A stretch of 64,000 bases of DNA from Glycera tridactyla (Eukaryota), in NCBI GenBank assembly GCA_965644265.1, contig OZ286471.1, forward strand, positions 31,062,001 through 31,126,000, in the 5' to 3' direction. Every line of letters starts with the position of its first letter. Positions within the stretch are counted from its first letter, which is position 1. The translations under genes were made by a program, and so were the position numbers. Of the stretch, positions 1,547 to 8,952 are shown piece by piece. The notes under the pieces are model-generated. The model did not search any database, was not told where the DNA came from, and worked only from the letters and a program-made list of their open reading frames with translations.

Positions 1547-2397
1547 TGTGCAGGTTGAAAACAGTGGTGCTTGGTATCGTGGAAGTTGTTGTCGGGAGAG
1601 CAAAGAGTGTTATTGACAATTTCAGGAACAGTTGTGATATCAAAAACGATATATAAATAGTTGGTAAATAAATAAACCAGTGCAGCTAGAAGTATGGTGG
1701 AAAAGAGGAGCAGTAGAATGATGGTCTAGATGTCCCCTATCGTCGGTACGTCTTACTGAAATGTTTTAGGCAGGAAAACCAATGTCGTTCATACAAGCGA
1801 TAAGTCGACCTTTTGACCATAATGCAATAGATGCAACAGATGCACGATGCTTGATGGTTGATACAATTTCCGTGGTCAGACAGATACACAAAATACAAAT
1901 CAATACAAATCAATGAGATACAAAAATCGTTCATGATCAACTTTTCACTAATGATATGCGTTAGTTGTATTTCACCATTCTTGAGTCAGTATTGAGCACC
2001 AAACCAGCCACACCTTGTCGTATTCCGTATATGGTCTGTCTGGTCATGACTAGGTTTGGCCAGGTTATTGAACATATGAATGCAAACAGAATATGAATCT
2101 TGAAGAAACTTTATTAGTGTAAGGCAGATGCATTTTATGTGATTAGTCATCGTGTAATGAATAATAGTATTTGATAATGTGTAGGGAGCCAGGCAACGCA
2201 ATGCTGCCATTCCCACGATAAGTACGTCAAGTATTATATATGGATATATTTGGGGCCAGGCAGCGCAATACTGCCTTCCTTGTGACATTTCAGGTAAGTT
2301 CATGTTTTATTTGTATCGTGTGTAGTACGAGACTAATATTCATAAGAATGTGAGTATGGGCATATGCCATCCCCTGTCTACTATAATGTTTAATTAT

Positions 2398-3228
2398 TTA
2401 CTGGTTTAGTGACTTCCAGTGCTCCATAATCTTTGGCAGGATGTCTCGCAGGAGTGCTTGATATCCCAAGTTGTTGAGATGAATGTTATCATCTTGTAGA
2501 AAGCCTGGAAGGATATCATCCTGGTATCCTGAGCTCACACGGGGTTTATCCTTGTAATAATACAAGGTTCTTGTTGACAGCTGACGCACCGGATGGTCCA
2601 CTTTAAAGATTCCATAGAACTTATAGTTGATACAATCTGCCATGGCACGGCCATTGTCTTCCCACCAGATACGAGGAAATACTGGTACATGGCCTAACGG
2701 GACACCAGGGAAGGCTGCACAGATGTCGTCTACCAGATTGAAGACACAGGGGAACAATTCTTTATCCCATCTCAGTTTGTCTTCATAAGCTCTTTTCGCT
2801 ACAGTTTCAGGTAGAAGATCTTCATAGGCAGTGGATGTATATTTCTCAAAATTGTCACTGTCATTACCGCCTATAATGAGAACGATAAAGTTAGGTTTCC
2901 ATGCAGAGTTGACAATGGGGTCCCATTGATTTCCATATTTCAGGGTTTTTTCTGCGCTCATACCTTGTCCTTTTAGGTTTTCCAGGAGATTCCAAGTCTT
3001 TGCTCCTCCCACTCCCAATTCTACGGTATCCATGATAAATGGTCTTAGCTCACTGGTTGGGGGAAGTTGTCTCTTTGCCTTTGTTAGATGTACCACATGT
3101 GACGATCCTATAAACAGTATTTTTGGATGGCCGTGCCTGGCAAGTACGTGCTTCGCCTTCATCAATTTGTCTGGACCGACACAAGCGATTTTGTCTTCGG
3201 CTTTCTTCTGAGTGTCCACATTACACTC
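2398..3228 (-). CDS. SGNH/GDSL hydrolase (LINE ORF1-type esterase) encoded as a separate ORF or second exon
   Basis: All four SGNH blocks present: ILFIGSSHV (catalytic Ser), LGVGGAKT, IIGGNDSD, DNIHLNNLGY (DxxH). The ORF-track start is GTG; a splice acceptor precedes 3228; the first in-frame ATG is at 3162. Confidence 0.85.
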   Translation of the reverse strand, partial: ECNVDTQKKAEDKIACVGPDKLMKAKHVLARHGHPKILFIGSSHVVHLTKAKRQLPPTSELRPFIMDTVELGVGGAKTWNLLENLKGQGMSAEKTLKYGNQWDPIVNSAWKPNFIVLIIGGNDSDNFEKYTSTAYEDLLPETVAKRAYEDKLRWDKELFPCVFNLVDDICAAFPGVPLGHVPVFPRIWWEDNGRAMADCINYKFYGIFKVDHPVRQLSTRTLYYYKDKPRVSSGYQDDILPGFLQDDNIHLNNLGYQALLRDILPKIMEHWKSLNQ

Positions 3229-4315
3229 CTGAAACAGAGATTATTAGTGTATGAGCCCAACGGAGTTTTAATTTGAGGTCCCTGTTTTCTTATGTGATTG
3301 GAGCAATAATTCACATTCATACATTCCATAGATGATACTAATGCATTTACTCAATTTAATCAGCTTATGTAGGGTGAAAGTGGGTCTTTCAATTGATGGC
3401 AAGTTTCATGTAATGTTTTTGAAAAAAATATTCCGAATTGGTATAAGACCTTAGTTGATATTTTTGTTATTATTGATCTTATCACTTGAAATTAATAAAT
3501 ACTGAAATTTCATATTCTGGATTTTCCTTTTAAGATTTTGAAACTTCAGATTATATCATTCCATCTTATATTTTCGTCTCTTCGCCCACCCTGCAATTAA
3601 ATACTACTTCTTATATATCCCGACTGATGCTCACATGTTGTGCCTTGCCAAGTCAAGCACAATTATTTAATCAAGATGACACTACTTTTAGTATCACGTC
3701 ATCGATTTCATGTGAGAGTGTTTGCTCGGTTTGACTTTACCCTCAATCATAGGCATAGAGGATATATCACTACTATAGACACTTGCGCTCATATGTGTGC
3801 ATGTCTAAGTACAAATATCCTTGATTGTAACGTTTACCTCAGCATGACGAGAAATGACACAGATATATCTTGAGAGTTTCAATTGTTCTCCTGTCCCATG
3901 ATTGCATCTTATCGTACATGCTCTGACTAACGTGTGTCATGTGAGCATCTTCTATCAATACAGTGAGGACTCATATGGTGGTCTATTCAGACAGGTACTC
4001 CTGACCAACTGGTTCGCTATGCATGTTTACTCAAGCGTGACGAGTTATGGTCGTGCACGACACCCTTTCAATCCCAGGTTCATCGCGAAAAGCACGTAAA
4101 TAAATCTCCATGTTTGATTAATCGAATCTCCATGATTGATAAGTCAAGTCATATAACCATGCGATTTTCGATATTGACAAAACCAATGCATGCATGATTG
4201 GTTCGATAATGGTGAGTCGCGGTTCACATACGCTGGTGGGCGAAGTGTGTATTGGCATATATGGACAACGGCTATTACCTCTGAAAATTACCATGTACAG
4301 ACTCATTTTACTCAC

Positions 4316-4375
4316 TCGTTTAGTTGGTTCAGTAGGGTCATAGTGGCGACGATATAATGGTACATACGCCATCAT
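4316..4375 (-). CDS. Putative mini-exon (MMAYVPLYRRHYDPTEPTKR) spliced to the esterase exon
   Basis: ATGATGG starts 12 nt after the ORF1 stop; the exon ends CGA|GTGAGT (phase 0), matching the phase-0 acceptor at 3229. Confidence 0.5.
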
Positions 4376-4387
4376 CTACGATTCAAT

Positions 4388-7273
4388 TTAGTACCAGTGG
4401 GGAGGCTGTCGTTGTTGTTGTTGCCACTGACCACTGTATTGTGCGGTGTGTGTTGGGTAGTTGGCCTTACTATTGTTGCCATTCCACGCTAGGTGGGGAG
4501 GGGACATATGTGCCGGTTGAACAAACTGGTAGGGCCTGTCAGGTACAAAAGAGGGTGCATTGTATCGAAGGTAACTTTGATGATTGTTATAATTCTGGTC
4601 ATGTGGTGGAGAGCCTTGATTATAGTACTTATTTTCATTTCTGTTTTTGTTCTCATTTATGCTATAATAGTGGTTTGATTTGTCATATAGGTTCCTTGAT
4701 TTTCTTAGTTGTTCGTTGACCATTTGTTGGTGGAATTTTTGAGTAATAGTCATTTTATTCTGTGAACTGCCCCCAGTTTCTGTTTCAATTTCTATTGCGG
4801 ATTTTTGTTGGTTATTCTGAATTGGTGCCTCAGTGGATGCATTAACTTGTTCATCTGGAGTAATATCATTTTTCTTACTGTCGATACTGTTTTCAGTCGA
4901 TTCGTTAATTGTTTCTGTCACAAGTTCTGGTGGGCTGGTTGGTGATCTAGTGGCCCAGATAATACCATCATGGGTCCACACCCTGTGAAATATGTTCTTT
5001 TTCCTAGCTTGGCGTGCTGAAAAAAAGATGCTATTATTCTTTGAAATGAGAAATTCCTTCACAAACATTTGGGTACCAGTCAACAAGCCTTTCATCTTCA
5101 TGACTTTACGTTTAAGGTCAATGTCTTTGAAACGTACTAGGATCTGTTTTGACGGTTTACCTGTCCCGCCAATGAAAGTACATTTTGCAATATGCGAGCT
5201 ATTCATGTTTATACCCAGACTTTGTTGAATGAAATATGATACATTGTCTGTGATAGAGTAGTTCGGATTGATATCAATGCCTTCGACAATAACGGTGTTG
5301 AGCCTGTCCGATAGTTCCAATTGTTCGATCCTCGTTTTTATCTTTTCCAGATCAATTTCACGTGGTGGTGCCTGGGCAGGACCGTCAGCACTGGGTTCAA
5401 CTGTTTTATCAATGATTGATTTGATCTCTTTTTGTAACGATTTTAGTTTTTGTTCCTGCTTGACAAGTTCTTTTACAGTTTCTTCAGTAACATTCTTGTG
5501 CAGATCTTTTCCTATTTCATCTTTGTGCTTTGCTGCTATATTGTCGATAATATGAGTGCATTCCTTTTCAATTAGTTTACTCATATTTTTCTCTAATTTT
5601 TTCTCAACATTGGGGATAACCGACTGTGCGATGGAGATGTTCATCTCCGCTTTTAGATCAGTGATGATATCCGATTTCATCTCCAATCTCATTTCGTTTT
5701 TCAAGTCACATTTAACTTCCGCTTTGATGGATTTCAGTAGATCCTCCCACAATTCTTTCTTGATATCGTTTTTCAATTTGATTAGCCAATCATCTGTATC
5801 AGTTGACTTTGTGACAGCGGTAGGGGTGGGTATACTCGTAGACGTTGACATGCTTTTAGTGAGGTGCCACCTGATATCGCTTTTCAGGTGAGGCGTTATG
5901 CTTGCGTCCGTGCCCGGTTTAGCCGCGGAAGGGGGACAGTCTTCACGCAATGTGAGATTCCCTGTGGCTAATCTGGGGCCATCTGTCGGCACGGAGGGGA
6001 AGGTATCCGAGCACGCTGTTCCCCGCGGTTGGTCCGAGTCATTAGCTATGGGGGGACTGTCTTCACGCAATGTGAGATTCCCTGCCGATGACTCGGAGAC
6101 ATCTGCGGGTGGTTGTGAAGACGCCTCTGAACCAGGAGCATTTTCTTGTGTATCGTCTTGAATAATGTCGTCTAATGATTTGTTGTGCTGTCCAGGGATA
6201 AAAGAAGCTGGAATACAATCATTGTTTTCTTCATCTAAATCGGGAATGACGGATTCCATTGATTGATTAGCTTGATCAGAGTTATCTTCTTTTTCGTCAG
6301 TTTCAGAGGAATTATCCTGGAATTTCGGGTCCTCTAATAATTTTTGTTTCTTATCGATGCTATTTGATGCCAATGACTCAGGGGAAACGCAGTCTCTGAT
6401 ACGTTTTCTTTCCTGTTTGTTCAGGTCTGACATTTTTACCTGTCGTAAGTTGGTAGCATGTTTTGATGTAGATAGGTACTCAATAGGGAGCGCTTGCTTG
6501 TCTTCAGAGACATCATCAGGATCAATGTCGGTACCGAAGACCACTTTTTCAGATATTTCCACATCCGCAAAATCAAAACTCTTAGGAATAGCAATCGAGT
6601 GAGCACTATCAGATTCTGAGTCGGATTTCTTATGTTTATCACTCTTGTTATCTTTTAGTGCTTTAGGCGTAGATATGATTTCAATGCTGTCACTTAGACC
6701 ATGTCTGTTTTGTGTGCTAAGTGATGGTTCATGTTCATCGTTCTTGGTATCATTGCTGGCAATATGAACGACTGAGTTTTGAAGAAACGATATTGAGTCA
6801 GCGCTGTTCACTGTGCTCACGCCAGGGGGGCTGTCACCACGCAATGTGGGACTCCCTTCAACAAAAGTTGGGTTCGAGCATGTTGAGATGGTCAATTCAC
6901 TACTCGGACTGTCGCCTGTTCCAATAGTTAGTGAAGCATCGGAGTCACCGTCATGGGAGACGTCACGGTCGACTGACTCGGCACTCTCGCGGTTTGGTAA
7001 GCCAGCTTGATCATTAGCATTAATTGCACTCACGCTCGTACTGACTGACGGCTTATTCAGGTCAGCAGTGCTATGCTGCTCATCAGAGAACTCATCCATG
7101 ACGTTGGTTTTTAGCATTGGCGGCTGCTTAGTTGTATATTTAGCATTCACTGTATCATCGCTCACCGTGGAGCGTGGTGTCAATGTAAAGAATTTTTTGA
7201 AGCTACTCGTATCAAACACGATACCTGATGATTTGGGCTTCCCGGTCGATGTCTTCTTGGTATGCTTATCCAT
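4388..7273 (-). CDS. LINE ORF1p (~961 aa): S/D/E-rich disordered N-terminus, coiled coil, L1-type RRM plus CTD, Q/N/Y/P-rich tail
   Basis: ORF track 4388-7300 starts at TTG; the first ATG is at 7273. Coiled coil (LIKLKNDIKKELWEDL...LKSLQKEIK), then IEQLELSDRLNTVIVEGI...QILVRF...MFVKEFL...ARQARKK..RVWTHDGIIW, the hallmark of Crack/Daphne/L2-type ORF1. Confidence 0.88.
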   Translation of the reverse strand: MDKHTKKTSTGKPKSSGIVFDTSSFKKFFTLTPRSTVSDDTVNAKYTTKQPPMLKTNVMDEFSDEQHSTADLNKPSVSTSVSAINANDQAGLPNRESAESVDRDVSHDGDSDASLTIGTGDSPSSELTISTCSNPTFVEGSPTLRGDSPPGVSTVNSADSISFLQNSVVHIASNDTKNDEHEPSLSTQNRHGLSDSIEIISTPKALKDNKSDKHKKSDSESDSAHSIAIPKSFDFADVEISEKVVFGTDIDPDDVSEDKQALPIEYLSTSKHATNLRQVKMSDLNKQERKRIRDCVSPESLASNSIDKKQKLLEDPKFQDNSSETDEKEDNSDQANQSMESVIPDLDEENNDCIPASFIPGQHNKSLDDIIQDDTQENAPGSEASSQPPADVSESSAGNLTLREDSPPIANDSDQPRGTACSDTFPSVPTDGPRLATGNLTLREDCPPSAAKPGTDASITPHLKSDIRWHLTKSMSTSTSIPTPTAVTKSTDTDDWLIKLKNDIKKELWEDLLKSIKAEVKCDLKNEMRLEMKSDIITDLKAEMNISIAQSVIPNVEKKLEKNMSKLIEKECTHIIDNIAAKHKDEIGKDLHKNVTEETVKELVKQEQKLKSLQKEIKSIIDKTVEPSADGPAQAPPREIDLEKIKTRIEQLELSDRLNTVIVEGIDINPNYSITDNVSYFIQQSLGINMNSSHIAKCTFIGGTGKPSKQILVRFKDIDLKRKVMKMKGLLTGTQMFVKEFLISKNNSIFFSARQARKKNIFHRVWTHDGIIWATRSPTSPPELVTETINESTENSIDSKKNDITPDEQVNASTEAPIQNNQQKSAIEIETETGGSSQNKMTITQKFHQQMVNEQLRKSRNLYDKSNHYYSINENKNRNENKYYNQGSPPHDQNYNNHQSYLRYNAPSFVPDRPYQFVQPAHMSPPHLAWNGNNSKANYPTHTAQYSGQWQQQQRQPPHWY

Positions 7274-7316
7274 AACTCCGTTCAGTCGAACTTGTTCCAA
7301 ACTTCATTATTTCCAG

Positions 7317-8952
7317 GGAAAAAGCGACCTTTGCTCTCCACGATTTGAACTGGTTACCTACTCGTGAGCGCCATGTCAACATGGACGAAACTGGCCTATT
7401 CTTCCATTCAACCACCAAGAAATCATGGATAGCATCTGGCGTTGACTGTTTGGGCGGTAAAAACTCCAAGGAATGCGTCACATTGGCACTGGCAGCAAGT
7501 ATGACAGGTAAGTGTTCCGCCATCCCGACGTGTTTTCATTGTTTTCAATGTATGCAGATGCGCAGATCTCCACTGCGCAGCTTGTTTTTGCTATAGGCCC
7601 TGCCCACTTACTCAATTATTTTTCTTAGAAATGCGCAAATTTTCGTTATTGTATCATCAATGTGATCTGTCTAATCATAAAGAAATGATCATGGGGTTGA
7701 ATTGTAAAAGATCGGCTTTATTCGGGGAGCAGAGATGGAGACGGAGAGATGTTGCCTCGGCGGCGGTCAACGAGTCATGAGGACCAGCGCAGCCATACGC
7801 TTGTATATTCGTCTTCTGCGCATCTCGCATATTAATTTTTTTCACAAACATTCTTGATTTTCGAGATTCATATCACTATTGTCTTTTAGCCATTATTAGA
7901 AGGATGTTGGGGTTCGATTGTAAAAAAAATATTATGCATTATGGGATAGAAGACAAATTGCAAATGGCTGCCACAACATCTCAAAATGGAATAATACGTG
8001 GAGTTTTCGTTGTTTATGTCGTTCCTTCTCTAGGTAGGTGTCTGATTTTGACATCGGCCTTACTTTGCCCCTTTTCTTTTGTCATACAGGAGAGAAATAT
8101 CGGCCTCTACTGATCGGGAAATCTGCGAAACCACGTGCTTTCAAGGCTACCAGCATTGACAAGTTGCCTCTTACCTACAAATTCAAGAAGGAAGCGTGGA
8201 TGACGTCTGGCATCTTTGAAGAATGGCTGAGAGGGTTCAATTTGTAAATGAAAAGGCAGGGATGAAATGTCCTGCTGTTCCTCGACAATGCTCCGTGTCA
8301 TCCCGACCTTGGCAACCTGCTTTCCAACACCAAGCTGGTCTTCTTCCCGCCCAACACTACTTCATGCAGTCAGCTGCTTGACCAAGGGATAATCAAGAAT
8401 GTCAAGGATCATTACCGGATCAAGCAGCTGACACACACCAACCACTGGATGGATCTGTTCCCTCCCAAGACAGGCACAGACTCCATGAAGATCAATATGC
8501 TTCAAGATGTCCATTGGGTGCAGATGTCGTGGGACGCCGTCACCGAGCACTGCATTGCTCGTGTTTCGCCAAGGCCGGTTTCGGTGAGACCCCTGATGAC
8601 CCCGACCTTGATGAAGATGGGGTCCCTCTGAGAGCTATACAGCTTCCCAATCAACTCTTCAGGTGCGATTTTAGGGACTTGCTCCGACTTGACAGAGATC
8701 TACAGACCTGTGAACCCATGCGAGACTGGGAAGGGAAATTATTCAGTCCGTCACTGACAACGATGAAGATGATGACAGTGATGACCACAAGGATGATGAC
8801 AAGGATGATGCACCGCCTCCACTGCCAACACCACCGATGGGAAAGAAAAGCTTTTACAGAGTGTGATGCAGCTGATCGACGATGTGGACGCAAGTCATCT
8901 TCAAGCTGCAGCCCACCAGACAAAAATGGAGGACTTCTTCATGAAGAAGTGA
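7317..8952 (+). pseudogene. pogo/Tigger-family DDE_1 transposase (DD31D), decayed, with a spliceosomal intron at 7508-8089
   Basis: NMDETGLFF...GGKNSKECVTLALAASMTG|EKYRPLLIGKSAKPRAF...AWMTSGIFEEWL...FLDNAPCH-(31 aa between Asp)-LDQGII; in-frame stops near 8245 and 8263; frameshifts; acidic tail; C-terminal PIP box QTKMEDFF (8917-8940). Confidence 0.9.

Follow-up and report, generated by a model that had tools for sequence, protein, structure and literature searches.

A Glycera tridactyla LINE with an intron-split esterase gene and a candidate two-RNA programme

Element architecture

The window, a 64,000-nt stretch of DNA (G000:C32:31062001–31126000) from the 2.04-Gb host genome that we searched, carries on its minus strand an element that, by its sequence, is a LINE with three ORFs: ORF1, an SGNH esterase as the middle ORF and an APE-RT ORF2. 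Copies share the order leader, ORF1, exon 1, intron, esterase exon, spacer, ORF2 and 3′ end. The 5′ end and leader span about 100 nt (7274–7374), where the homology of 14 copies begins and beyond which their flanks differ. ORF1 (4388–7273, ~960 aa) is an open frame conserved among copies, with an acidic, low-complexity N-terminal half and a conserved core that we take to resemble that of type II ORF1; its single Pfam match, to Baculo_FP_2nd, is weak (E=0.02). The esterase is encoded in two parts, exon 1 (4316–4372; 57 nt, 19 codons) and exon 2 (2398–3228; 276 codons), the latter matching Pfam Lipase_GDSL_2 at E=1e-4, below the cut-off. Between them lies a phase-0 GT-AG intron of 1087 nt (3229–4315), whose splicing we infer from a donor and an AG conserved across copies. 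The spacer contains a short hairpin conserved in the window's clade and present here in two copies (2276–2258 and 2208–2192), a candidate internal poly(A) signal, AATAAA, assigned by its position after the hairpin and followed by GU/U-rich sequence (2110–2115), a second AATAAA after the esterase (2311–2306) and, upstream of ORF2, a conserved stem-loop of ~75 nt predicted by RNAalifold (1683–1758). ORF2 (1–1546), with Pfam domains Exo_endo_phos and RVT_1, continues past the window edge. Just upstream of the LINE, on the plus strand, is a DDE_1 transposase fragment (8266–8631; Pfam E=4e-18) from a separate, broken DNA transposon.

The 3′ end of the element is a stem-loop with AATAAA followed by (TCTTA)n; the window copy reaches its stem-loop and (TCTTA)n ~1.97 kb past the window edge, with ORF2 frameshifted after codon ~705. 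ORF2 is uninterrupted in 34/78 copies, and the Pfam scan of an uninterrupted relative, L146, returned both Exo_endo_phos and RVT_1 (E=6e-39). The window copy's ORF2 is 69–73% identical to that of L019, and the nearest public RTs, mostly unnamed, are at most 47% identical to the element's. The repeat tail and type of ORF1 suggest the CR1 group (CR1, L2, Crack, Daphne, Kiri). An Rfam scan of a 10-kb stretch of one copy (L050), from the 5′ end of the element into ORF2, returned nothing near the gathering score.

Exact patterns for the window's clade found 81 3′ ends and 15 5′ ends, a comparison between patterns that differ in stringency, and 19 of the first 30 3′-end loci lose homology within 1.2 kb, indicating 5′ truncation. 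We saw (TCTTA)n ends in 18 copies and no LTRs. Between young copies, identity over the whole element, 5′ end and tail included, is 97.7–99.6%, and their flanks are unrelated. Being a 5′-truncating, tailed LINE, the element evidently moves through RNA. Many insertions sit in simple repeats of the (GATA)n/(TATC)n type, which resemble the tail (flanks of L004, L005, L006, L016 and L100) and may reflect a target preference.

The element does not have the type IV arrangement, in which the esterase lies within ORF1: a stop separates ORF1 from exon 1, and over the 63 copies measured the distance between them ranges from 1 to 49 nt, with all three frames represented. As the frame is not kept, we rejected the idea that ORF1 is read through or fused into exon 1. 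In one copy that is otherwise decayed, L003 (G000:C13:52903900–52904028), the ORF1 stop is missing and the frame continues into exon 1, probably through mutation.

Splice signals and the esterase product

The first-pass annotation of this DNA had proposed a spliceosomal intron that builds the esterase gene, and every coordinate it gave proved correct: an ORF1 stop at 4390–4388, 12 nt, ATG ATG G at 4375 and an exon ending in CGA before the donor GTGAGT at 4315. The acceptor AG at 3230–3229, the intron length of 1087 nt and phase 0 at both junctions were reconfirmed in the sequence, and the esterase frame is indeed closed just upstream of the acceptor, by an in-frame stop at 3243–3241, four codons up. 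That an ATG opens the exon also held; the choice of the first ATG (4375), with a product of 296 aa, did not. The conserved start is the second ATG (4372), to which alone the strong start context belongs, giving 295 aa. Nor is the proposed branch point, ACACTAAT, demonstrably conserved: a branch-like motif occurs at −50 to −10 in 46/80 copies, against 32/80 for a control window, and the same 8-mer recurs at 2120 in the window copy.

We assembled 85 distinct loci, 25 from a DNA search and 60 from 140 scored protein matches, among 3511 first-look candidates; the esterases of these copies diverge to ~40% identity. An AG stands exactly before esterase residue 1 in 80 of the 85, while 170 control offsets gave a mean of 4% and a maximum of 13%. 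The five exceptions comprise three in which small indels leave the AG 1–3 nt off and two point changes. Position −3 of the acceptor is C or T in 79/80, and a pyrimidine tract is present. At the other junction, a stop-free ATG exon of 57 nt ending at GT was found in 68/85 copies, and a scan that assumed no exon length returned 57 nt in 45/60. The 68 donors read GTAAGT (42), GTGAGT (9), GTAAGC (8) or another GT sequence (9). Donor, acceptor and phase, whose decay among copies had been named beforehand as evidence against an intron, are thus kept across deeply diverged families, as is the exon length.

The sequence between these signals behaves otherwise. Introns range from 319 to 1680 nt, with lengths in all three frames, and are alignable in only 49 of 2016 pairs. 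Both exons are under purifying selection, with pN/pS of 0.20 for exon 1 and 0.13 for exon 2 in eight copies, and an unspliced exon 1 hits a stop 2–83 codons into the intron. The combination of a GTRAGT donor, a pyrimidine tract, a YAG acceptor, a conserved phase and a free interior is that of a U2 intron, and on these signals we regard the intron as very likely real. In one case, L007 and L247 (G000:C11:84223497–84255950), the 5′ half and the esterase half lie ~29 kb apart, apparently one element split by insertions inside the intron. Three further splice candidates were rejected. A second intron before ORF2 lacks a conserved AG ahead of the ORF2 ATG; a leader donor, AG followed by GTAACC, occurs in some clades only; and a YAG in the stem-loop finds no support as an alternative acceptor among genomic copies, with exon 1 joined to it in 0/62.

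Could the esterase be made without splicing, with exon 1 an unrelated small ORF? The first-pass annotation had cautioned that an ATG at 3162 might serve as an unspliced start, and a non-AUG codon could be used in the same way. The former suggestion failed on comparison, as residue 23 is Met in 13/80 copies only, and 30/80 lack any in-frame ATG from the upstream stop to codon 40. Protein conservation starts exactly at the AG, the donor phase is fixed and homologs exist in which the two segments are joined. Although a family that has lost exon 2 keeps exon 1, as an unrelated ORF might, we consider this explanation scarcely credible.

Each of the catalytic residues S43, G75, N122, D247 and H250 is present in 67 of the 68 open copies. 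A model of the homolog P0018 (pLDDT 91.6) has an SGNH fold (Z 14.0, rmsd 3.7, 190 aligned residues), with PAF-AH and GDSL esterases as its best fold matches; its first 20 residues, which are exon-1-like, are ordered (pLDDT 84–87). By sequence and model, the product of the esterase ORF is an SGNH hydrolase of putative activity. The ZfL2-1 esterase was not among the sequence or fold matches listed.

Homologs outside the genome

A word-based protein search found no esterase homolog; a full HMMER search found 103 distant ones. In many of the public homologs, a PIYRR-like, exon-1-like segment is joined directly to the start of exon 2, and P0030 has exactly 19 residues before that point, matching the exon-1 profile at E=1.6e-4. 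Because distant homologs carry both segments joined, exons 1 and 2 would encode one protein. Eleven other homologs, picked by eye, start at the exon-2 position in an acceptor-like stretch of hydrophobic residues and Gln, as if read from unspliced DNA.

In a FastTree, midpoint-rooted phylogeny, 13 core joined proteins form a clade (support 0.987) that is sister to the esterases of this genome, with the acceptor-like proteins outside. This suggests that an old intron was lost in the sister clade, or that the joined records derive from RNA. A contig related via P0018 (L287, 1–1895) carries the end of an ORF1-like frame, followed after a 390-nt spacer by an uninterrupted esterase that has no intron at the site; the spacer might hold an untranslated intron. 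Two further records, P0106 (a joined esterase) and P0125 (an ORF2), both cite a 10,385-nt NCBI contig and possibly belong to a single full-length intronless element. Since the sister clade is contiguous, the intron appears not to be needed in every lineage, unless those records derive from RNA.

The copying template

Intronless genomic copies, which the first-pass annotation had proposed to look for, did not turn up: exon 1 adjoins exon 2 at 0 of the 85 exon-2 loci. A search with exon 1 alone gave 62 matches, judged by eye, of which 60 have GT after 57 nt and one after 58 nt, while in the remaining one other DNA intervenes and the esterase follows at a distance of 2.4 kb; this sample overlaps with the exon-2 sample. 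If insertions are independent, 0/85 bounds the intronless share near 3.5%. The annotation had also held that unspliced RNA is the template for transposition, and here it finds support, since a LINE with the hallmarks of RNA copying has left no intronless copy that we could find. We consider it very probable that unspliced RNA is the template.

The intron would also persist, passively, if the element spread as DNA, by segmental duplication or on a DNA-transposon vehicle, or were copied from an antisense template. Some copies do form near-identical pairs, L274 is an instance of local tandem duplication, and an antisense template has been put forward for Penelope-like elements (PLEs) in the available text of PMC3846280. 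Against these explanations, homology reaches no further than the 5′ end and (TCTTA)n tail of the element itself, 5′ truncation is common, ORF2 is an APE-RT and not a GIY-YIG enzyme, and the esterase and ORF2 trees, compared by eye, contain the same main clades. We regard this whole group of explanations as very improbable. The trees, made with FastTree and midpoint-rooted, have weak support inside the window's clade, where any count of esterase losses would be provisional.

Poly(A) signals and esterase-less copies

In the window's clade, the esterase stop is followed in order by the hairpin, A[AT]TAAA and GU/U-rich sequence, with A[AT]TAAA 17–75 nt after the hairpin in 12 of 14 members, the 12 being those that match the hairpin pattern. 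Over a wider sample, AATAAA occurs within the first 450 nt after the esterase stop in 36/66 copies, compared with 20.7 in shuffled sequence, a count inflated by the relatedness of the copies; the controls gave 20 on the other strand and 8/52 in introns. It is absent from these 450 nt in 30/66 copies, mostly from long-spacer clades, so that on this evidence only some branches of the tree have a clear candidate poly(A) signal. In several clades (L029, L193, L205, L162, L170, L173, L191 and L203) the spacer between esterase and ORF2 measures 1.7–3.8 kb. Also conserved in the window's spacer is a motif of ~25 nt (1999–2019, minus strand), flanked by the poly(A) signal and the stem-loop. We considered and rejected a fourth small ORF in the spacer, since indels and stops break its frames.

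We found a dispersed family that has lost exon 2, represented by 12 full-span copies 94–98% identical to the query copy. All 12 keep the donor, 11 have AATAAA 314 nt downstream, and the succession of hairpin, AATAAA and GU-rich sequence is preserved. The donor is likewise present in L249, a second esterase-less copy. In L274 (G000:C26:63.985–63.994 Mb), a deletion that starts within exon 1 and reaches almost to the end of the esterase has removed the donor; this form was seen at a single locus only, where it occurs as rearranged copies in local tandem (n=1). Exon 1 in the esterase-less family is not more conserved than its neighbours, in a table that includes one mis-oriented row, set right in the donor count. 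The retention of the donor is consistent with a coupling between U1 and the poly(A) signal; the numbers are small, and simple recency could explain it. The family (L248, L254–L265; G000:C4:32340131 and others) is young, with a possible short-intron acceptor ~100 nt after the donor. In esterase-bearing copies the donor lies 1.4–2.6 kb from the poly(A) signal, which is a long distance for suppression by U1.

Complementarity between the leader and ORF2

An 11-nt motif in the leader (7339–7329) is complementary to a site just before ORF2 (1605–1595), 5.7 kb away, and the complementarity covaries across families. We refer to these as the two halves of a predicted long-range duplex. When the sites were located separately, both were found in 33/58 copies, and the core of the pre-ORF2 site was found in 55/58. 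Cognate pairs match at 12.9 of 19 positions and non-cognate pairs at 11.0, a difference equalled in 0 of 10000 permutations, although the kinship of copies overstates the figure. Three duplex columns swap in step (AT/GC 28:4, CG/TA 27:6 and AT/GC 23:6), the third of them outside the search pattern; these changes reflect, as far as the sequences indicate, only a few independent events at the level of clades. In each of the five elements scanned, the pre-ORF2 site is the leader's best partner along the element. In many leaders (L162–L205) a GACGTG motif lies shortly before the duplex site and may be an internal promoter element.

The positions of the two halves bear on their function. The leader partner is found 30–45 nt into the element, and its counterpart invariably sits shortly ahead of ORF2, 28–276 nt from the AUG. 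In 15 of 33 copies the stretch from the duplex site to ORF2 contains at least one ATG, a difficulty for a simple shunt. Upstream of the duplex site, the ~75-nt stem-loop has 18 pairs, six with two-sided changes (RNAalifold, 15 copies), and may be another part of the same apparatus. According to the available text of PMC3894237, the translation of ORF2 across long spacers is an open question. The intervening ATGs, the variable distance to the AUG and the chance that the separate stem-loop is part of an IRES would all suit a duplex whose motifs serve RNA packaging, template recognition or a promoter, and not ORF2 translation. This is quite possible, if somewhat doubtful: the placement of one partner near the 5′ end and of the other always just before ORF2 speaks for translation, and the paired changes favour base pairing over a protein-binding motif.

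A proposed two-RNA mechanism

Taken together, we propose a model with two RNAs, in which coupled poly(A)/U1 control is combined with duplex-assisted translation of ORF2, and we think it rather probable that this is the best mechanism on the sequences and by analogy with other elements. The short RNA would be spliced, with its end at the poly(A) signal that follows the esterase; having translated ORF1, ribosomes would reinitiate 1–49 nt further on, at exon 1, and so make the esterase. Stringent LINEs are copied via their own 3′ end. The short RNA would lack the 3′ stem-loop and tail, which would exclude it from copying and so prevent intronless elements from forming. The long RNA, unspliced and full length, would be the sole template for copying. 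On it the donor would go unused, and U1 bound there would keep the internal poly(A) site silent, as in plant Ty1/Copia; exon 1 would run into the intron stop, and the leader would pair with the site 28–276 nt before the ORF2 AUG, bringing ribosomes loaded at the 5′ end across ~5 kb. Underlying the model are the architecture, the splice signals, selection on both exons, the lack of intronless copies and the covarying complementarity, which are observed; splicing, cleavage at the internal signal, U1 control, reinitiation and shunting are the steps it predicts.

An alternative scheme would have all RNAs full length. The intron would be spliced, AATAAA would be incidental, and intronless copies would be missing owing to slow splicing with entry of unspliced RNA alone into particles, or to poor expression of intronless copies. 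The absence of AATAAA near the stop in 30/66 copies and the contiguous relatives elsewhere fit such a scheme, and the duplex alone could favour one isoform. A spliced full-length RNA would, however, keep both duplex halves and the tail, which predicts dead-on-arrival intronless copies, and none was seen (0/85 and 0/62); the order of hairpin, AATAAA and GU-rich sequence is also kept in the window's clade and in the esterase-less family. We judge this scheme unlikely.

Our two-RNA model can be extended to the lineage as a whole. We suggest, tentatively and with a little less than even confidence, that the sequences record an old, hitherto undescribed LINE radiation with a retrovirus-like two-RNA programme, in which the donor permits full-length RNA by silencing an internal poly(A) site and thereby keeps intronless offspring from arising or spreading, and a ~5-kb duplex loops out two ORFs for translation of the polymerase from the unspliced RNA.

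Significance

Intron loss is a standard signature of retrotransposition. A LINE lineage that keeps a coding intron through deep divergence breaks this rule, and implies that the element chooses which of its RNA isoforms is copied. The predicted duplex offers a concrete, mutable handle on ORF2 translation across long spacers, and the coexistence of esterase-bearing and esterase-less families in one genome provides a natural comparison for the role of the esterase in LINEs. Repeat annotation that relies on ORF finding would mis-call the esterase gene. New here are the candidate poly(A) signal after the esterase in part of the family, the covarying complement between the leader and the site before ORF2 and the esterase-less family that keeps its donor.

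Comparison with known systems

Human L1 undergoes cryptic splicing, and ZfL2-1 has splice sites. Our literature searches turned up no LINE whose ORF is split by an intron and no two-RNA strategy of this kind described for LINEs; a description could exist in Repbase reports, subscription journals or supplements. Esterase-bearing LINEs of the CR1, L2 and RTEX groups, for example zebrafish ZfL2-1, also have an APE-RT ORF2, a 3′ stem-loop with a short repeat tail and an SGNH esterase with an intact catalytic set, as described in the accessible parts of PMC3905857, PMC4120745 and PMC13343379. In those LINEs the esterase is the ORF1 protein, whereas in our element it has an ORF of its own, placed between a long ORF1 and ORF2, and is split by an intron, a feature that goes unmentioned for them in the same parts of the three papers. 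The esterase of an esterase-bearing LINE is dispensable for transposition (PMC13343379, in part), and the element shares this trait, as its esterase-less family has dispersed in this genome.

Retained introns, and in some cases esterases, are known from PLEs, and the available portions of PMC3846280 and PMC8557442 present PLEs as the one group of retroelements that retains introns, and explain this by their unusual mechanism. PLEs are a different RT class with a GIY-YIG endonuclease and pLTRs; our element has neither, and carries an APE domain and a LINE-type tail. Bdelloid LTR elements share the extra esterase ORF, a GDSL esterase in ORF3 after pol, and such ORF3s are typically expressed from spliced messages (PMC5408684, in part); they differ in being LTR elements, not LINEs. 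Drosophila TART is a non-LTR element with splice sites and multiple poly(A) sites (PMC1636488, in part), but its introns sit in antisense transcripts and build no protein, while the intron described here splits a coding ORF.

The plant Ty1/Copia element EVD makes shGAG from a conserved donor, with splicing coupled to early termination and an unspliced full-length template; U1 suppresses the downstream poly(A) site, and an intronless mutant terminates early (PMC5580714, in the text available). Our model shares with EVD the donor, early termination, the unspliced template and U1 suppression, the last of which is demonstrated in EVD and inferred here. EVD, however, is an LTR element whose short RNA makes Gag only, while the present element is a LINE whose short RNA is bicistronic in the model and whose ORF2 needs its own initiation. 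By this analogy, the element would work like a Copia or retroviral two-RNA system, and yet it is a member of the APE LINEs.
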